The translations under genes and the position numbers were made by a program. A stretch of DNA of 64,000 nt from an uncultured archaeon (lineage in GTDB: Archaea; Asgardarchaeota; Hermodarchaeia; Hermodarchaeales; Hermodarchaeaceae), in NCBI GenBank assembly GCA_964347045.1, contig CAYFXC010000010.1, positions 41,940 through 105,939 on the forward strand, given 5' to 3'. This document shows, in pieces, positions 13,688-29,421 of this stretch (position 1 is the first letter of the stretch; each line of letters begins with the position of its first letter). Below the pieces are notes generated by a model, which made no database searches, was not told the origin of the DNA, and worked only from the letters and a program-made list of their open reading frames with translations.

Positions 13688-14800
13688 GTGAGTTATGGTA
13701 GCAATCAAAAACGAGATTATTACGAAGTGCTTGGTGTAGAACGGAAAGCTACCAAAGAAGAAATTAGAAAAGCGTATAGAAAGCTTGCACTGAAATTTCA
13801 CCCAGATCGGAATAAAGAAGCTGATGCTGCAGAGAAATTCAAGGAAGTCTCTGAAGCCTATGCAATTCTTTCAGATGACGAAAAGCGGCTCCAGTATGAC
13901 CAATTTGGGCATGCTGGGATTCACGGACGATATAGTGCTGAGGATATTTTTGGTGGGATTAATTTCGAAGATATTCTGCGCAGTTTTGGATTAGGTGGGA
14001 GACTTGGCGGTGTCGGTAGCATCTTCGACTTCTTAATGGGTCGAGGAGGACGAAGAACTTCACGTCGCGATCAGGCAATAGATCTGCGATATGATATGAA
14101 TATTACATTAAAAGAAGCTGCGACAGGTATTGAGAAGGAAATCACGCTCAAGCGCGACGAGCAATGTCCGAAATGTGGAGGAACAGGGGGAGAACCCGGA
14201 ACACCTCTAAGAACCTGTTCCCGTTGTGGTGGGCGAGGCGAGCTTCGACAAGTCCAGCAAACCATGTTTGGACAGGTTATTCGTGTTGCTACATGTCCGG
14301 GATGTTATGGTCATGGTCAAACGGTAGAAACGCCCTGCTCTGAGTGTAGAGGAAAAAGAACCGTTCGAGAAAAACGAAATATTCGAGTCCAAATACCACC
14401 AGGAGTTGAATCAGGTTCAATGCTTAGGCTTAGGGACCAAGGAGCGTCACAGGAAGGAGGAAAACCTGGCGACCTTTATGTTGTTGTCCATATCAAGCCT
14501 GATAAAATCTTTCAGCGTGTAGGCGACGATATCCTGATGGAATTACCCATTTCAATAACCCAAGCTACATTAGGAACTGAACTCGAGATCCCAACTCTCC
14601 TTTCCAAAGCAAAATTAAAAATCCCTGCTGGCACCCAACCAGATACAATTCTCCGTCTAAGAGGACAAGGCATGCCTCGTGTCCGATGGCGAGGAAATGG
14701 GGATCAATTAATTCGAATTAAGGTAGATGTTCCCAAAAAACTCAACAAACATCAGCGAGACCTTTTGGAACAACTTGCAGATGAGCTTGACAGAGATTAG
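13688..14800 (+). CDS. dnaJ: Chaperone DnaJ
   Basis: J domain with HPD, G/F-rich region, four CxxCxGxG-type repeats. Confidence 0.98.
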
Positions 14801-14804
14801 CTCG

Positions 14805-16181
14805 TTAATCAGCTTTGGCAACTACTTGAATATCACTGAATTGAATTGAAGGAGCTATGAGTGATCCACCTGCACCAACAAGATAGCTCCGGATATCACT
14901 TCCAACTACGTCAACCTTTTTGATGAGATCAAATGCATTGCCAGCTAGCATTAATCCATGCACTGCACCTGTAAGTTCGCCATCAATGATGCGAAAAGCA
15001 GGATTTCCAACAACGCTATAATCACCAGTTTCTTGGTTGGATGAATGAGCACCCTGTAATCCTTTGATAAGGTAGCCAGATTTAATATCGCTAAGTATAT
15101 CTTCTAGTGCATGTTTTCCACCAAGGACAACCATATTCGTAGGAGCTGTATCGACAACACCTGTACGAAGATTACGCGTGGCGTTTCCAGTACTAGTTAC
15201 ACCATGACGTTGGGCCCAATAGTTGTTCCAGAGGAATGAACGGAGTTTTCCTTTCTCAATAATAGAAGTACTTTGTTGGGGAATCCCCTCACCATCAAAG
15301 AGTCCTGTAGCATATCCACCTTTAATGAGTCCATCATCAGTAAACGAAAGCGTTTTGGAGGCAATTATATCGTCTTTTTTATCCGCTAGTTGGGATTTTT
15401 CACGGACAACATTTTCACCTTTTATGGCTGGCATGAATGCATGAGAAAGAAGAGAACCTAGAGCACTAGCTGCAAAAACAACAGTCCCTGATTCAGTTTC
15501 CCCTTTAGCATGCTGCTTTGCAAGCAGAACATCTTTCACAGTATTATTGACAACATAATCTATGTCCAGTTGAAAATTCCGATTGACATCAACCGACCAT
15601 ACAGAAGGAGTCATACCTGAATCAGTTGGAGCTACTAATACTGCATATGCATAAACACCCGTTCCACGATCTGTAGTAGAGATTCCATTAGAGTTGGCAT
15701 AAGCCAACCAGCCATAGAATCCCCCAGTTCCCGCTTCGCCGATAACAATCTTTGAATCTTTCTTCATGATGTCGCTTGTCATTTTTGTTGCTAAATCAAC
15801 GAAAACACCGGGATCTTTTTCTGGAATTGAACCATCCCAAGTTCCAGTTAGTTTTGCATACTTGCCCTTTGTAGCGAAATCTTTCCAAGTTTGATCGGGA
15901 GTACTGGCCTTTGCAGCAGCAATTGCTCGTTTCACAGATTCTTCGATGGTTTCTTGCATCAGCCGATTAGTGTAAGCTGAGCCCAATTGATTATTAATTA
16001 CGACGCGGATTGATGCCCCCGCTTCTTGAGATTTTATTGCTTTGTTGATCTGCCCAAGAGCGACTTCACAGCTGATTTCGTAATTATCCTGTAATAGAAT
16101 CTCGATTTGATCTACCTTATTGGAACCATATGCTAGGGCTTTTTCAGCTAGATGTAGAAGCGTTTGTTCTTTGTCTTTCAT
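14805..16181 (-). CDS. pmbA: TldE/PmbA family protein
   Basis: FDGEGIP, STGNA, GDYSV; paired with TldD; GGAGG RBS before ATG 16181. Confidence 0.88.
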   Translation of the reverse strand: MKDKEQTLLHLAEKALAYGSNKVDQIEILLQDNYEISCEVALGQINKAIKSQEAGASIRVVINNQLGSAYTNRLMQETIEESVKRAIAAAKASTPDQTWKDFATKGKYAKLTGTWDGSIPEKDPGVFVDLATKMTSDIMKKDSKIVIGEAGTGGFYGWLAYANSNGISTTDRGTGVYAYAVLVAPTDSGMTPSVWSVDVNRNFQLDIDYVVNNTVKDVLLAKQHAKGETESGTVVFAASALGSLLSHAFMPAIKGENVVREKSQLADKKDDIIASKTLSFTDDGLIKGGYATGLFDGEGIPQQSTSIIEKGKLRSFLWNNYWAQRHGVTSTGNATRNLRTGVVDTAPTNMVVLGGKHALEDILSDIKSGYLIKGLQGAHSSNQETGDYSVVGNPAFRIIDGELTGAVHGLMLAGNAFDLIKKVDVVGSDIRSYLVGAGGSLIAPSIQFSDIQVVAKAD

Positions 16182-16200
16182 TATCTTTTCATCCTCCTTC

Positions 16201-17604
16201 TCAGGCTTTTCCTCCAAATGTTATTGGTCCACTACCAAATCGAATAAGAGGTCCACCTTCACTTATGAGAGCTTCTTGACCTTTGCCACATCGGCCTACA
16301 CCATAACCAAAGGTTTCTTTTCCTACACCTTCAATTTTGAGTAACGCTTCGGTGGCAATTCCGGAAATGGACATGTTGCTTACTGAGTTGCCTAACTCGC
16401 CATTGACAATTTCAAAAGCCTCTTGAATTCCAACTTGGAAACTGGAATTCATTTGCGCTGAACCTCCAGCAAATGAAAGACAATAATAACCGAAATCAAT
16501 GCCCTCAAAGAGCTCTTCATCTAACATATCGCCGCGATCAAAGAATGTATTTCGCATGCGAATCTGCGGCACAAAACGATAGTCTTCGGCTCTAGAGTTG
16601 CCAGATAGTGGTAATCCTGTTTTTTGGGCATATTCCCGATCTGTTAATAATGCGTTAAAAACCCCATCTTTTATGAGATATACTCGACTTGTTGGAACTC
16701 CTTCATCGTCATATTTGGTAGTACCTAGTCCGTCCTTAATGGTTCCATCATCAACCATTGATACAACCTTAGGGGCAACATCTTGATTCATTTTATCTGC
16801 AAAAGAGGATTGCAATGTGAGATCGGCTTCCGCAAGATGTCCAAGGGCTTCATGAGCTAATATTCCTACCACATTTGGACCGATTACACAAGGAAAACTA
16901 CCAGGTTTTGGAGTAGACCCTTTTAGTTGTTTCTTAACCCGTTCAACTATTCTTTCAGCAACCACTTCAGGCGTCTGGTTCAATTCATAGAATTCCCAAC
17001 CATGTGAAGTAGAACCACATTCATCTCGTGCACCTGTGATTTTTCCATTTTCTTTACCTGTTAATCTTACAGATTGATAAACATGCCCAAATCCCATCTC
17101 GAGTTGTGTGCCTTCATTTGTAACCAGGTATTTTGTACCAATACTATCACGTTGACGAATCGTAATGGCTTTGATTCGAGAATCTAAGCGTTGTGTTTCT
17201 TCCCATAGTTTTGCGGCATATGCGATTTTTTCTTTAGGATCCACATCAGCAGGATTTTGTCCAACCTCGAAAGGAACGGTTTCTTTTACTGGTTTGATTT
17301 TTGCTAGTTCAATGGGGTCTTTCCGGGCTTTTCCTGCTCTGTTAGCAAGAGAATACGCATCTTTCACTGATGACCGTAAACCATCGATAGTGAGGTCGTT
17401 TGAGGATACAAAACCCCAAGTTCCACCAGCTAAAACACGAATAGCAACACCTTCTTCAGTGCGTTGGCTAATGCTTCGTACACGACCATCCTCAAATTGC
17501 GTATTACTAAAAATAAGGGATTCCATGCGCAATTCAACATATGTTGCACCGAGTTTTTCTCCATAATCTGCAGCTTTTTGAAGCCTATCTATCAAGTGAA
17601 TCAC
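16201..17604 (-). CDS. tldD: TldD metalloprotease
   Basis: HEALGHLAEAD, YDDEGVP, RMRNTF, CGKGQ; exact start uncertain (ORF extends to 17652). Confidence 0.92.
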   Translation of the reverse strand: MIHLIDRLQKAADYGEKLGATYVELRMESLIFSNTQFEDGRVRSISQRTEEGVAIRVLAGGTWGFVSSNDLTIDGLRSSVKDAYSLANRAGKARKDPIELAKIKPVKETVPFEVGQNPADVDPKEKIAYAAKLWEETQRLDSRIKAITIRQRDSIGTKYLVTNEGTQLEMGFGHVYQSVRLTGKENGKITGARDECGSTSHGWEFYELNQTPEVVAERIVERVKKQLKGSTPKPGSFPCVIGPNVVGILAHEALGHLAEADLTLQSSFADKMNQDVAPKVVSMVDDGTIKDGLGTTKYDDEGVPTSRVYLIKDGVFNALLTDREYAQKTGLPLSGNSRAEDYRFVPQIRMRNTFFDRGDMLDEELFEGIDFGYYCLSFAGGSAQMNSSFQVGIQEAFEIVNGELGNSVSNMSISGIATEALLKIEGVGKETFGYGVGRCGKGQEALISEGGPLIRFGSGPITFGGKA

Positions 17605-17700
17605 ATCAAATCGCAAGAAGAATTTCACTTTGTCGGAGCGGATAGGATACACATCAGCTTATAAGGCAATTGGAATGAACAACTAGATGAGGAATAGTCG

Positions 17701-23731: not shown

Positions 23732-24190
23732 TTAAGATTTCTCAAAATGAGTTTTTAAGTTCATGAGTGTTTGGCGAGCATCCAATCGAATTTGTTCATC
23801 GGGTTGTTGTCGTGTTTTTCATCGATTCTCCGACCCAAAAAACTTCGGGGGGGCCATATGTAATCTCGCAAGTGAGATGTGTTCCACTTGCAGTGTGTTC
23901 AAAAAACCATTTCGCATCTTGAAAAGGTTGCCTCGACGATGATCGGACATGCAAGGATCTTCCAAGCTGAATTTCAACGACTTCCAATTCCTGAGTGAAA
24001 CGAAAATCTTTAACGCTGATTTCCATCGCAAATCGTGCTCCCACACCCCAGAGGGCTTCGGTGGTTGGATCATAGCTTGTTACTGATGTGATGAATTTTG
24101 GGACGTTTCGATGATTGACAGCATATTAGAACAACTGTTCAAGAGGGGCAATGATTTCGATATTTTCGCTAATTTCTGTCTTTTTTGTTT
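23732..24190 (-). pseudogene. Degenerate SRPBCC/polyketide-cyclase-like gene
   Basis: ISENIEIIAPLEQLF*YAVNHRNVPKF...GVGARF...GTHLTCEITY contains an in-frame TAA. The C-terminal ...RQTLMNLKTHFEKS lies in another frame after homopolymer runs. Confidence 0.7.
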
Positions 24191-24226: not shown

Positions 24227-25561
24227 TTAGCGGTGTAAGTATTGTTCCCATTCCCAGTCTGTGACTGTTCCATGAATGTATTTATACCATTCAGCTTTTC
24301 GGATTTGTTGGTAAAGATCAAAGAATTCAGAACCGATCACCTCAATAAGAACAGCATCCTTTTGAAGGGACTGAAGAGCGCCATCTAGAGTGTCCGGGAG
24401 CTGTTGGATTTTCAATTGACTTAGGTGTTTCCTTGATAGGTGATAGACATCCTCTATAACTGGCTCAGGAGCCTTGAGTTTTTTTTCTATGCCATCCATA
24501 CCCGCGCCTAGTAGCACCGGAAATAGCAGGTAAGGGTTTGTTAGAGGATCGGGTGAGCGAAACTCAATAGCTGCTTTTTCTGCACTTGTAAAGAGAGGAA
24601 TTCGAATTAGTGCAGATCGATTGAGATATCCCCAAGTAATGTATACTGGAGCTTCGAATCCAGGAACCAAGCGCTTGAAGGAATTTACTGTTGGATTGGC
24701 TAGAGCAGTGATTGCTGGAGCATGGTGCATAAGTCCTGCCACAAAATGATAGCCAGTCTCTGTGAGAGTCCCATCAGATTTTCCAAGGAGATTCTGATTA
24801 CCCTTCCATAGTTGAAGGTGCACATGCAAACCACTTCCTGCTTGGCTAGGAAAAGGTTTGGGCATAAAACTGACCTCTACATCATAGAGTGCTGCACGTC
24901 GACGTAGGAGGAGTTTGAAGAGTGTGAAATTATCAGCAGCACGTCCCAATTCTGTGAACGCAAGTTCGATTTCCTGTTGGCTTTGTCCATGTTCGGAATG
25001 GACCCAGGCTATTTCGATTCCTATTGCCCGCAAATCGAGCGCGGTCTCCAAAAGGAGGTCCATGCTTTGATTTTCTGGAAAAATGTCTGCATAGCCAGCC
25101 GTGTCGAGAGGCACTCCATCCTCTGTGAGGAAATAGAATTCAGGTTCAAGTTTAACTCGCATCTGTAAACCTTTTGCTGCGAGTTGTTCTAAACTTCGCT
25201 TGAGAATAGTTCTTGGCGCATGTGGATGAGGAATAAGATGTCCATCTGCACCACGCTGAAAAACATCAGAAATTACAATAGCGCGCCGTGGAACACTATT
25301 TGGCAATTCTTGGAGTGTGGAATTATCCGGAACAAGCTGGAGATCTGATGAAGTAATCGATGCGAGTCCTTTCACAGATGAACCATCGATACCACAACCG
25401 GGAACATGTGCTGACCCTTTTTTAAACGCGTTTACAGAATCAACCGGGTGGATAGGGACAGTCATTCCTTTCGGTACTCCGTCGATATCAACTGTAAGCA
25501 ATTCAACAAAATGGAGTTTGCCTCGACCTTCAGGGGAATTCGTTTCTTCGGGCATACGCAT
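24227..25561 (-). CDS. glnA: Glutamine synthetase type I family protein
   Basis: IDGSS, EPEFY, FMPKPF, GSGLHVH, KRLVPGFEAP, NRSALIRIP, EFRSPDP. Confidence 0.88.
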   Translation of the reverse strand: MRMPEETNSPEGRGKLHFVELLTVDIDGVPKGMTVPIHPVDSVNAFKKGSAHVPGCGIDGSSVKGLASITSSDLQLVPDNSTLQELPNSVPRRAIVISDVFQRGADGHLIPHPHAPRTILKRSLEQLAAKGLQMRVKLEPEFYFLTEDGVPLDTAGYADIFPENQSMDLLLETALDLRAIGIEIAWVHSEHGQSQQEIELAFTELGRAADNFTLFKLLLRRRAALYDVEVSFMPKPFPSQAGSGLHVHLQLWKGNQNLLGKSDGTLTETGYHFVAGLMHHAPAITALANPTVNSFKRLVPGFEAPVYITWGYLNRSALIRIPLFTSAEKAAIEFRSPDPLTNPYLLFPVLLGAGMDGIEKKLKAPEPVIEDVYHLSRKHLSQLKIQQLPDTLDGALQSLQKDAVLIEVIGSEFFDLYQQIRKAEWYKYIHGTVTDWEWEQYLHR

Positions 25562-25681: not shown

Positions 25682-27640
25682 TTGAGCATGAAGACGGTGC
25701 GTTGCATGAAAGGGGCGCGACCAAAAATCCTTCCACTACTTCTCTCGCTGCTCCTAATTCCTTCCTTCACAATATTTGGCACCTCATATGTTGTTTCTCA
25801 GCCAATTGACTCAATTCCTCAGACAAGGTTGTATAACCCATCACTGAACTTAACAAAAGTATCAAAGACACGCACACTATTGGCAAATGAAAATCCTCCA
25901 CGAAACTGGACAGTACTTGTGTACATGGCAGCCGATAATGACCAGCATTTTCCCGCTTTTGATAACATTAACGAAATGGAAATAGTTGGATCGACTCAAC
26001 AAGTTAACATCATTGTATATGTTGACTTCCTAACCAATAGCACTCAATTTGGTGCAGGCGCTTATACTTTCAATATTACGCGAGATTCACCCCTGGCCAA
26101 TAGTTCAATCAATTCGCAACCACTAAACACACCACTTCCTACTGAACCAAACATGGGAGATCCCACAACTCTCCTTGCATTTATTCAATTTGCTCAGAAC
26201 TATTCCCAAGCAGAACATTATATGCTGATAATCTGGGATAAGGGAACAGGCTACACCGGTGTTTGTTTTGATGAAACCAGTGGGGGTGATCGTCTTCTTC
26301 CTCAGGAGATAGCTCTAGTTTTAGAAAATAATACTATTGAGCCGATCAGCATCACTGCCTTTGATGCTTCCCTCATGGGACAGATCGAACTAGCATATGA
26401 GCTTCAAGAAGGAACAGAATATATAATCTTCTCAGAAGAAACCATTCCAAATCAACATTTCCCCTATCATACTTTTTTGAACAGCCTTATTCTTCAAGAA
26501 GATTCAAGTCCATTCCTGCTCGCAAAAGAAGTTGTTGACCGATATATCGAGGCTTATTCACCAGGCGGCACATACTATTCTGATTTTTCTATTCCTCCAT
26601 CAACTCTGTGCCTTTCGGTCATTAACACTTCCATGATGCCCACTGTCTTTACATGGTTTAATCAAGCCATTAACTGGTTAAATACCAGCTATAATATATA
26701 CAGGTCTTATTCTGGAATATGCAAATCAAGAGGTTTAACACAGCAATTTAGTGTCGCTCATTACATTGACTTAGGAACCTTCGCCTACCAATTACTACAA
26801 TGGGTACCGGATCTAACGTTCCAAAATTTTGTTGAGAATCTCAGCATCAGTATTCAATCGGCAGTTTCTTACCAATTGCACCTTTCGGGTTCACCCGGAG
26901 CTACTGGATTAGGCATTAATTTTAATTACTATGATCCAGTCCCACTTTCATTTCTCAATAACTCGGCCTATGAAGACGTTATTACCAAATTGTTTACACT
27001 TGGTGAAACTGCAGACACTTCAATTCTTTCATTATCATTAGGTCCCATTTTTGGTTATCTCGATGGAAAAGCCGACTCAGTATATTTTAGATTTTCTCCT
27101 CAAATCGCTGTTGAACACACTGTCATACTAACTGCTTTTCAAAACGTTGATGAAGACTTTGACCTTTATTTGTATGACAGTAATCTGAATTTATTAACAC
27201 GAGCTGTTGGTATAACTTCAGATGAAGCTGTGCAATGGTCCCTAATTCCTGGACAACTTTACTATATCCAAATTTTTTCAAATCCGAGAGCTGACATCAC
27301 ATATGGATTAGGTTCATTTGAAATCATAATTAATCCAAGTTTTCCAGTTAATCCAGCGTCAGTGGTAATACAGATTGGTATCTTTACCATTATTCTCTGC
27401 ATCATTCTGTTCATTATATACATTATTTGGCGGAACTGGGAAAACATTAAACGGGCAATCGAAAGCTATCAAATTAGGCGAATGGCAAAGCGGATCCAAA
27501 CCGAAGCAACCACGGAAACTGGATCCCCAACTTCTACATCAACATGCGAAAAATGTAGCGAAGTATTACCTGAAGATGCAAAATTCTGTTCAAATTGTGG
27601 AGAAACCTTTGAAGAACCTTCAGAAAATCCCAAAGATTAA
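25682..27640 (+). CDS. Clostripain (C11)-fold cell-surface protein with PPC-like domain, TM and cytoplasmic zinc ribbon; canonical dyad substituted
   Basis: WTVLVYMAADND, NMGDPTTL, IWDKGTG (normally WxHG), FDASLMG (normally FDAC), DFDLYLYD, TM, CEKC...CSNCG. Confidence 0.85.
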   Translation: MSMKTVRCMKGARPKILPLLLSLLLIPSFTIFGTSYVVSQPIDSIPQTRLYNPSLNLTKVSKTRTLLANENPPRNWTVLVYMAADNDQHFPAFDNINEMEIVGSTQQVNIIVYVDFLTNSTQFGAGAYTFNITRDSPLANSSINSQPLNTPLPTEPNMGDPTTLLAFIQFAQNYSQAEHYMLIIWDKGTGYTGVCFDETSGGDRLLPQEIALVLENNTIEPISITAFDASLMGQIELAYELQEGTEYIIFSEETIPNQHFPYHTFLNSLILQEDSSPFLLAKEVVDRYIEAYSPGGTYYSDFSIPPSTLCLSVINTSMMPTVFTWFNQAINWLNTSYNIYRSYSGICKSRGLTQQFSVAHYIDLGTFAYQLLQWVPDLTFQNFVENLSISIQSAVSYQLHLSGSPGATGLGINFNYYDPVPLSFLNNSAYEDVITKLFTLGETADTSILSLSLGPIFGYLDGKADSVYFRFSPQIAVEHTVILTAFQNVDEDFDLYLYDSNLNLLTRAVGITSDEAVQWSLIPGQLYYIQIFSNPRADITYGLGSFEIIINPSFPVNPASVVIQIGIFTIILCIILFIIYIIWRNWENIKRAIESYQIRRMAKRIQTEATTETGSPTSTSTCEKCSEVLPEDAKFCSNCGETFEEPSENPKD

Positions 27641-29421
27641 TCTTTAATGAGCTGTTCGAGTTGTGTAATGAACGCTTCTGCTTGTTTCATCCCAAGAGCC
27701 CAGAAATCCTCTTTTGAAATATCAAAATCTAGTTCAGCCGCAAGTTTCCGTGGCGAACTTGTGCTACCAGCAGAAAGTATTCGTTTGAGTTTTGGTACAA
27801 AGTCTTTGCCCTGTTCTTTGTAGAGCCGGTAAAGAGCAAACACAAAGAGATTAGCAAAGACATAGGGATAATTGTATAACCGGAATCTTGGGATGTAATA
27901 ATGCCCTTTGAAAGTCCACTCCCATTTGCTTTCCGGTAGCCATTCGACCGCGTTTCCGAACATCCTGTCACGCCCCTTAACCCAATATTTCGAAATGGTT
28001 TCGCCATCGAGATATTCACCTCTTTCAAAAGCAGCATACATATCTATTTCAAAGAAATAACGGGCTGAAACTTGGAAAACCGTTTGTCCAAATTCATCAA
28101 GCACACGAACGAGGACTTCGATTTTCTCATCGTTAGTCTTTGCTTCCTCAATAAGCTTGTCCGATAATAGAAGTTCCCCAAAGATACTGCCTACTTCAGC
28201 AATACACATTCCAATATCTGTGTTAATAGGTTTCAGCCCAGACATTAGATAATCATGAACTGCATGACCGTTTTCATGAACCAGAGTAAAAACTTCACTA
28301 AGTTTGCCATTATAACTCAATAAAATGAAAGCTGATTTGCCCGCGAGCCAAGGCGAGCAGAATGCTCCTTGTCGTTTTCCTTCACGAATCGCTCCATCAA
28401 TCCTATTTTTATCAAACATATCTCTTACAACCTGAGCAAGCTCGGGATCAAACCCCTCGTAAGTGTCAACAGATATTTGTTGGGCTTTTTTCCAATCAAA
28501 ACTACGTTCTGGCATATTAGCTAGTGGGGTAACCACATCCCATTCTCCTAGTTTGGGTAAGTTCATGAGCTTTGCTTTTAGATGAAGATAACGCTGAAAG
28601 AGTGTTGAGTGATTATCAACTGTTTTCATTAACGCGTCAATCGTTTCAGAGTCAACATCGTTATCAATAAGACTCTGAGTTCGTGGGGATGGCCATTTTC
28701 GTTTCTTACTCATTTCTACATGATCGCCAATAAGAGCCCGTGCACCGCTCGCCCAGATGATTTCGTCTTTTCCAAGACCTGTCCAAATAATACTCTTTGC
28801 AGCTTTGCGAACATCTCGATCAGAGTCTTCGAAGAGAGCATGGATTTGCGTAAACGGCATCTGTTTCATTTCGCCATCGATTTCGATTTCAAACATCCGC
28901 GTTGAAAGCCAGTCCCCACGAAGTTGTTGCCACGAATCAATGCCAAATTGATCTTTTTGAATAATAAGTTGTTCTTCCATTTCACTCAAAACATGTGGTA
29001 CTTTGCGTTGGGCGATTTCAAGAACATGTTTGTATTCAGCAAGAACAGGATTATCAATAAGCTCCGGTCGGGCTGCAATCGCTTGTATAAGTTCAATCTC
29101 TGTGAAGGCAAGGAGTTGACCAATCTTTGAGTTCATCCTGCGTGCTAAATCTGCAGCTTGTTTGGCAGCATCATCAAGAGAATTTGCAGCATAGCTAAGA
29201 TATGAGTATTTGAAAGCGCCTTCGCGTTTTAGATAGTTATCTTGGGTTTTTTCAAGAAATGCTTTCAATTCTGTGGGATTAAGTTTGCGAATTTTTCCTT
29301 TGTATTCAATTGCCAGTTCTTCTGCGTCCTTGACAGCCTGATCCATCTGTATTTTGAGTTTGTCAAGCTTCGTTGAGGGAACCAATGGACTTAGGTCCCA
29401 CACTGCACCTTTTACGGTCAT
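27637..29421 (-). CDS. pepF: M3B oligoendopeptidase F
   Basis: WDLSPL, GKRQGAFC, HENGHAVH...AEVGS, YNYPY. Confidence 0.93.
   Translation of the reverse strand: MTVKGAVWDLSPLVPSTKLDKLKIQMDQAVKDAEELAIEYKGKIRKLNPTELKAFLEKTQDNYLKREGAFKYSYLSYAANSLDDAAKQAADLARRMNSKIGQLLAFTEIELIQAIAARPELIDNPVLAEYKHVLEIAQRKVPHVLSEMEEQLIIQKDQFGIDSWQQLRGDWLSTRMFEIEIDGEMKQMPFTQIHALFEDSDRDVRKAAKSIIWTGLGKDEIIWASGARALIGDHVEMSKKRKWPSPRTQSLIDNDVDSETIDALMKTVDNHSTLFQRYLHLKAKLMNLPKLGEWDVVTPLANMPERSFDWKKAQQISVDTYEGFDPELAQVVRDMFDKNRIDGAIREGKRQGAFCSPWLAGKSAFILLSYNGKLSEVFTLVHENGHAVHDYLMSGLKPINTDIGMCIAEVGSIFGELLLSDKLIEEAKTNDEKIEVLVRVLDEFGQTVFQVSARYFFEIDMYAAFERGEYLDGETISKYWVKGRDRMFGNAVEWLPESKWEWTFKGHYYIPRFRLYNYPYVFANLFVFALYRLYKEQGKDFVPKLKRILSAGSTSSPRKLAAELDFDISKEDFWALGMKQAEAFITQLEQLIKD

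Follow-up and report, generated by a model that had tools for sequence, protein, structure and literature searches.

A membrane-anchored clostripain-fold protein of Hermodarchaeaceae with Lys and Ser in place of its catalytic dyad: a likely pseudo-peptidase retained by selection

The C11-like gene and its domain architecture

The stretch of DNA considered here (the window) comprises 64,000 nucleotides of contig CAYFXC010000010.1 from an uncultured archaeon of the Hermodarchaeaceae (Asgardarchaeota), and it contains, at positions 25682-27640 of the forward strand, a gene for a clostripain-like protein (peptidase family C11, clan CD) in which both residues of the catalytic His/Cys dyad are replaced, the His by Lys and the Cys by Ser. 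As argued below, the protein is likely to be a conserved pseudo-peptidase. An earlier note on this DNA, made from the sequence alone, had described an intact open reading frame (ORF) of 652 aa. The frame is indeed free of stops from 25682 to 27640, but its real start is probably not the TTG at 25682: the N-terminus of all orthologues is M-K-G-A-R, which corresponds to the ATG at 25706, so that the product is more likely to have 644 aa. Residue numbers throughout follow the 652-aa frame.

The predicted protein begins with a signal- or anchor-like hydrophobic segment (25706-25780(+), residues 9-33), which is kept by the orthologues, and continues into a linker (25781-25891(+), residues 34-70) of low model confidence and poor conservation, with a predicted local distance difference test (pLDDT) score below 50 for residues 26-70 and variable N-termini among the orthologues. 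The clostripain-fold domain follows (25901-26941(+), residues ~74-420). It is matched by the Pfam family Peptidase_C11 (PF03415) at residues 80-373 (E 1.7e-39, with a score of 136.8 bits where the family cut-off is 25.8), and its Foldseek matches are exclusively C11 structures (E 1e-18 to 1e-21), with 9cip the best (E 2.7e-21) and 6n9j, 6nag and 6mzo among the others. The second domain (27014-27349(+), residues ~445-556) is a beta-sandwich, for which Foldseek returns collagenase collagen-binding domains and pre-peptidase C-terminal (PPC) domains (1nqd, 3jqw and 5sv5, probability 1.0); PF04151 is annotated in homologues.

Kyte-Doolittle analysis finds two hydrophobic segments, at residues 16-34 (2.06) and 561-579 (3.16), the second of which is followed by a K/R-rich tail. 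This second segment corresponds to a single transmembrane helix (27362-27430(+), residues 561-583; helix 558-584 in the AlphaFold2 model), after which come a basic juxtamembrane helix (27431-27511(+), residues 584-610, 7 K+R), conserved only in the Ser-bearing clade described below, and a C-terminal zinc ribbon of the pattern CxxC-x10-CxxCG (27545-27601(+), residues 622-640), whose match to Zn_Ribbon_1 is weak (E 1.6e-4) and under the curated Pfam cut-off for that family. The AlphaFold2 model, built with 50 homologues (mean pLDDT 85.3, predicted template modelling score 0.75), has the same layout: an alpha/beta domain, a beta-sandwich, a single long helix through the region of the membrane and, at the C-terminus, a small ribbon. 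The predicted ectodomain, which is probably N-glycosylated, holds all 11 of the N-x-S/T sequons, where shuffled sequences lead one to expect 5.9 ± 2.2 (P = 0.02). The signal peptide, PPC-like domain, single transmembrane helix and zinc ribbon that had been read from the sequence alone are thus borne out by hydropathy, by Foldseek and by the invariance of the ribbon cysteines among relatives.

The dyad positions and their flanking motifs

Alignments made with phmmer to clostripain (9cip), 6n9j, 6mzo and PmC11 (3uws/4yec) place Lys187 on the catalytic His and Ser230 on the catalytic Cys. The codons are AAG at 26240-26242(+), within the motif W-D-K-G, and TCC at 26369-26371(+), within F-D-A-S, exactly as the earlier note had them. 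The C11 scaffold motifs, which that note had called intact, are well conserved on the flanks of both dyad positions. More specifically, the protein belongs to family C11 by homology and fold and possesses the Asp of the S1 specificity pocket, but it has neither the His of W-x-H-G nor the Cys of F-D-A-C.

The S1 residue is Asp228 (codon 26363-26365(+)), two residues ahead of the nucleophile position, which is invariant in 50/50 aligned relatives and maps to Asp177 of PmC11 and Asp229 of clostripain. Asn86 is likewise invariant and corresponds to the Asn of the A-N-N motif of PmC11, most likely the pocket residue Asn50. Residues kept both in the Ser-bearing clade and in its His/Cys relatives include Trp185, Gly188, Gly190, Gly193, Cys195, Asp197, Phe227, Asp228 and Ala229, and further on Met232-Gln234, Glu236, Ser251, Glu252, Pro256, Pro261 and Tyr262.

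The autoprocessing segment that follows the His loop in characterized enzymes (Lys147 in PmC11, Arg181/Arg190 in clostripain) falls in a gap of the alignments to clostripain and 6n9j, and no conserved basic residue occupies the position aligned to the autoprocessing site in either clade. Arg204, a further candidate for a conserved site of activation or cleavage, was dismissed because it aligns neither to PmC11 Lys147 nor to clostripain Arg190.

Relatives and the order of the changes

The closest proteins all come from Asgard archaeal assemblies, labelled by their submitters as Promethearchaeota, Hermodarchaeota, Odinarchaeota or Hodarchaeota, and share the length and layout of the window protein. 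Among the database matches, 240 aligned C11 domains carry His/Cys, and the exceptions are mostly members of a single Ser-bearing clade, with about a dozen scattered elsewhere. A maximum-likelihood tree was built for 61 family members, with less closely related Asgard C11 proteins as the root. In it, all Ser-bearing relatives form one clade of 30-31 rows (Shimodaira-Hasegawa-like approximate likelihood ratio test, SH-aLRT, 100) that lies within His/Cys proteins sharing its architecture, and a second tree of 40 rows agrees on this Ser clade.

Within the Ser clade, the Cys site is Ser in 28/30 rows, Ala once and Asp once, and it is the His site that varies. The basal rows combine His with Ser (P0029, P0016 and a seven-row subclade), while P0017 has His/Asp. 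Elsewhere in the clade the His is replaced by Leu (P0027/28), by Val or Ile (P0018-20, with an extra His two residues downstream, G-H-G, at position 189), by Tyr (G007, Tyr/Ser) or by Lys, the last in a subclade of 15 rows that includes the window protein. This Lys subclade is itself mixed (K12/E3): Glu is found in three clusters, each from a different source and nested within the subclade, and Ser has changed to Ala once, in the Lys-bearing row P0011. Across the positional orthologues of a single genus, the His site shows seven states (H, K, E, L, I, V and Y). On the 40-row tree the His site requires at least 7 changes and the Cys site at least 3, and His was lost at least three times, to L, to V/I and to Y/K(E). 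The distribution on the tree indicates that Cys changed to Ser first, at the base of the clade, and that the His site was then released and drifted, Lys187 being merely the state of one subclade. An additional metagenome scan brought only three close loci, all in subclades already sampled.

The scattered, unrelated C11 homologues without the dyad that lie outside the Ser clade, about a dozen among ~260 domains, mostly have Ser at the Cys site as well. Examples are P0059, P0133, P0135 and P0174 (His/Ser), P0163 and P0257 (Gln/Ser), P0189 (Arg/Ser), and P0050 and P0262 (Arg/Gly), and some of the scattered domains belong, as one C11 domain among several, to giant multi-C11 proteins. These sequences suggest that pseudo-C11 domains arise repeatedly.

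Genomic context and paralogues

Gene order was compared within the class to which the window genome (2.58 Mb, 88.9% complete) belongs, a small one represented by 19 species genomes. All are of one family, in which genus g1 has 14 species besides the window genome and genus g2 has 4. In g1, the Ser-type gene is always flanked by a divergent glutamine synthetase gene upstream (24227-25561(-) in the window) and a convergent gene for an M3 oligopeptidase F-like protein, PepF, downstream (27637-29421(-)), whatever the residue at position 187. The constancy of these GlnA and PepF flanks identifies the Ser-type genes as positional orthologues.

The corresponding locus of the sister genus, in genome G018, reads radical SAM, GlnA, C11, a tetratricopeptide repeat (TPR) gene and PepF, and its C11 gene, P0132 (L070:6610-8340(-)), has W-N-H-G and F-D-A-C. 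The ancestor at this locus was hence a canonical His/Cys protein. P0132 ends just past its transmembrane helix and is without the zinc ribbon; the gene between it and PepF is a TPR-like ORF of 218 aa (L070:5941-6597(-)).

In 11/14 congeners, the Ser-type gene occurs together with a canonical His/Cys C11 gene located on another contig. Several of these His/Cys paralogues of g1 (L011, L014, L016, L018, L021) lie in open frames of ~1050-1110 aa, in which ~440 additional N-terminal residues precede the C11 domain. One Ser-type copy, in G007 (L039, G007:C48, ~14200-17623), appears split and was considered as a pseudogene or a case of a recoded stop, but was rejected as either: the apparent in-frame TGA adjoins a run of N, an assembly gap, after which the sequence is unrelated.

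As regards the immediate surroundings in the window, the flanking genes are on the opposite strand and of housekeeping type (glutamine synthetase, M3 oligopeptidase, FGGY kinase, aminotransferase), for which reason an operon or a functional partner was not inferred from the neighbours. The C11-like gene, in its stop region, and the convergent oligopeptidase gene share their last 4 nt (27637-27640), which leaves no space for separate terminators. A further ORF of 84 aa (23819-24073(-)), between the radical SAM gene and glnA, is without a Pfam match.

Selection and constraint

The Ser-type gene does not evolve like a gene in decay. Its ratio of nonsynonymous to synonymous substitution rates (dN/dS, NG86 method) is 0.18, 0.22 and 0.18 in three species pairs, at unsaturated dS values of 0.24-0.36, and the His/Cys paralogue in the identical pairs gives 0.15, 0.20 and 0.18. 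Judged by these ratios, selection holds on to the Ser-type gene no less strictly than to the presumed His/Cys enzyme. The pair with Ile/Ser is also at dN/dS 0.18, and since neither Leu, Ile nor Val can act as a general base, this value counts in favour of a pseudo-peptidase.

Constraint within the domain is distributed in a way that fits loss of catalysis. Fifty domain sites are invariant in the His/Cys clade, and their relaxation in the Ser clade is strongest at 400 (His), 187, 368, 401, 95 and 259, with site 187 second in entropy among all fifty. The His/Cys relatives keep His, Cys, Gly259, Glu263, Glu398 and His400; in the Ser clade, Glu398 and His400, invariant in the His/Cys clade, decay too, and site 263, acidic in 22/23 His/Cys rows, is His, Gln, Asn or Ser in all rows. 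Even in the Lys subclade, where 36% of the domain sites are invariant, 187 is not among them, and 62% of the sites are at least as conserved as it is. Taken from these alignments, the pattern is that of a nucleophile lost first and a catalytic apparatus left unconstrained afterwards, and not of a new, co-adapted Ser-Lys pair.

The pocket itself appears to have been altered. The gain of Lys187, of His or Arg at 259 and of His263, together with the loss of Glu263, reads as a shift of an acidic S1 region towards neutral or basic, and this shift of charge suggests a binding pocket that is remodelled or self-occupied. Site 259 (codon 26456-26458(+) in the window, where it is His) lies in the S1-pocket loop and aligns to Gly208 of PmC11, beside the pocket residue Asp207.

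A probable pseudo-peptidase retained by selection

From sequence comparison and from analogy with known systems, we consider it likely that the window protein is a conserved clan CD pseudo-peptidase retained by selection, and that its dyad has decayed, Lys/Ser being one of the resulting states. The features expected of a pseudo-peptidase are present together: an intact fold, a substituted dyad, conservation across species, purifying selection and conserved synteny. Specificity-pocket residues are retained (Asp228, Asn86, Glu252 and Gly188), in a pocket that has also been remodelled as described. In MEROPS terms the protein is presumably a non-peptidase homologue.

Under this explanation, the protein would be a type-I membrane-anchored, clostripain-fold ectodomain, predicted to be unable to cleave peptide bonds and derived from a surface protease that occupied this chromosomal locus with an active His/Cys dyad. 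The former substrate cleft may still be used for binding, and the protein may have a role at the cell surface beside, or jointly with, the active His/Cys paralogue that most congeners possess. On the other side of the membrane, the basic juxtamembrane helix of the Ser clade and the zinc ribbon could provide a cytoplasmic contact.

The last point calls for some caution. The earlier note had taken the transmembrane helix and the zinc ribbon to suggest a receptor, and this argument is weakened by the relatives: the complete layout of signal peptide, C11, PPC, transmembrane helix and zinc ribbon is found in 19/23 canonical His/Cys relatives, and the four zinc-ribbon cysteines are invariant in 28/28 rows of the Ser clade and 19/19 His/Cys rows. 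The architecture therefore predates the loss of the dyad and was inherited from an enzyme; taken alone, it does not point to a receptor. What does distinguish the clades is the segment between membrane and ribbon, a conserved Arg-rich helix in the Ser clade as opposed to a Pro-rich linker in the His/Cys clade, and this basic helix leaves some room for a cytoplasmic role.

Some observations weigh against a pseudo-peptidase. The first concerns the serine itself, whose codon belongs to the TCN set in the K, Y, I and L lineages and is AGT in the His-keeping subclade (read in the window and in two sets of loci, L031, L032, L034, L072 and L073 versus L022, L023, L028, L029, L033 and L036-L039, whatever their order here). 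TCN and AGT are two mutational steps apart, and the codons imply either a two-step switch that kept Ser (via Thr or Cys) or repeated change from Cys to Ser; that Ser230 is kept in 28/30 rows across this difference would accordingly mean that Ser as such is selected for, or else that Cys changed to Ser in parallel. Furthermore, every lineage that has lost His187 has a new His at 259 or 189, which can be read as a relocation of the catalytic His. Finally, no second (His/Cys) C11 gene was found in the window genome, which is 88.9% complete, with either the family HMM (hidden Markov model) or a His/Cys paralogue as query, so that the partner proposed for most congeners was not recovered there.

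Alternative explanations

The main rival, which we regard as improbable, takes up the first two of these observations. It holds that Ser230 acts as a genuine nucleophile within a clan CD scaffold and that the general base has moved from His187, still in place in the basal His/Ser proteins, to His259 in the L, Y and K/E lineages and to His189 in the I/V lineage, with Asp228 possibly orienting the base. Besides the persistence of Ser across the two codon sets, it can call on the invariance of the oxyanion-hole glycines and of Asp228, on the G-H-G of the I/V lineage, with its His two residues downstream, and on the concordance between sites 187 and 259: Gly259 is found in all proteins that keep His187, and His (L, Y, K/E) or Arg (I/V) wherever His187 is lost, in 21 versus 19 rows with 0 exceptions. 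This concordance, however, amounts to three independent events on the best tree, only one of them on well-supported branches, and as a test of correlated evolution has too few independent pairs for significance, no statistical claim is made for it. The I/V lineage, moreover, has Arg and not His at 259, and Glu263, Glu398 and His400 decay along with the dyad, which fits loss and not retuning. The basal His/Ser state is the same as that of the inactive metacaspase TbMCA4, the engineered C11 mutant PNT1 C136S is non-functional, and no clan CD enzyme with a Ser nucleophile was found in the literature searched. If a relocated base were nevertheless real, the Ser clade would show an enzyme family part-way through the reconstruction of its active site around a serine nucleophile.

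The earlier note had offered two readings, a pseudo-protease and a peptidase with a Ser-Lys dyad, of which the first is supported and the second has become very doubtful. In the latter, Lys187 would serve as the general base for Ser230, as Lys does in signal peptidase I, LexA and Lon, and the sequence offers Lys and Ser at both dyad positions, with Lys in 12/15 clusters of the nearest subclade. Such a dyad would lead one to look for joint conservation of the two residues, and they are not co-conserved: Lys has given way to Glu in 3/15 clusters of the subclade, from three sources and nested among Lys-bearing ones, and the Lys row P0011 has Ala in place of Ser. In positional orthologues, which are under purifying selection of the same strength, the His site is occupied by H, L, I, V or Y, and 187 lies outside the 36% of domain sites that are invariant in the subclade.

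That the gene is simply decaying, or that its dyad is an assembly or sequencing artefact, is next to negligible in probability, as nothing beyond the substitutions themselves speaks for it, and intact full-length ORFs in at least 12 species genomes and ~30 protein clusters, a dN/dS of ~0.2, conserved synteny and many clade-specific invariant residues speak against it; sequencing error and strain-specific decay, which the earlier note had kept in view, are excluded by the occurrence of the same states in many independent assemblies.

Significance

Genes of family C11 are counted as evidence of extracellular protein degradation in surveys of Asgard and sediment archaea (e.g. the Promethearchaeota preprint 10.1101/2025.03.11.642519). 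If, as the comparisons above suggest, one of the two C11 genes per genome in this lineage is most likely not a protease, then counts of C11 genes overstate proteolytic capacity. The family also offers a clean natural series for the study of pseudoenzyme evolution, with a His/Cys ancestor at the same position, an intermediate that keeps His beside Ser, and several independent losses of His, the whole of it under purifying selection. Clan CD pseudo-peptidases are already known from family C14; new here would be a pseudo-peptidase in family C11 that is archaeal and membrane-anchored.

Comparison with known systems

A full-text literature search (clostripain together with Asgard, and the Pfam name and accession) returned no description of this family, and no description of C11 pseudo-peptidases was found in the literature searched. 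The nearest enzymes are those of the C11 clostripain family itself (9cip; PmC11 3uws/4yec; Bacteroides 6n9j/6nag; 6mzo), with which the window protein shares the fold, the motifs flanking the dyad, the S1 Asp and the Asn of the A-D-N motif. It differs from them in having Lys for His and Ser for Cys, in that both the nonapeptide linker of clostripain and the activation segment around Lys147 of PmC11 fall in an alignment gap, and in the addition of a PPC-like domain, a transmembrane helix and a cytoplasmic zinc ribbon. A Cys-to-Ser replacement has been engineered in one C11 enzyme, PNT1 (C136S), which was non-functional in vivo (PMC4850289).

Natural parallels come from family C14. Metacaspase 4 of Trypanosoma brucei (TbMCA4) has kept its His and carries a natural Ser for the Cys; it is inactive, and the S219C change restores activity (PMC3220528). 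It resembles the window protein in the Ser that replaces the nucleophilic Cys within an intact clan CD fold, in its association with membranes and in the coexistence of active paralogues, whereas it differs in being a eukaryotic C14 protein, intracellular and flagellar, without the layout of transmembrane helix and zinc ribbon. A functional link to an active paralogue, demonstrated for TbMCA4, may be proposed for the Asgard protein.

In the bacterial pseudo-orthocaspases the His/Cys dyad has become Tyr/Ser; they are conserved, keep the acidic pocket and occur beside true variants, and the survey that covers them contained no pseudo-variants of family C14 in Archaea (PMC6426788). The likeness extends to the replacement of both dyad residues, to Ser at the Cys site and to the acidic pocket, and G007 even has the same Tyr/Ser pair. 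The differences are that these proteins are bacterial members of C14 with Tyr/Ser as the most prevalent pair, whereas the His site of the Asgard proteins takes seven states in one genus.

The closest comparison is with the canonical Asgard His/Cys members of family C11 (e.g. P0030-P0049; P0132), which have the same length and layout, mostly including the zinc ribbon, and are 34-43% identical to the window protein. They differ from it in keeping His, Cys, Gly259, Glu263, Glu398 and His400, and in carrying a Pro-rich juxtamembrane segment where the Ser clade has its basic helix.

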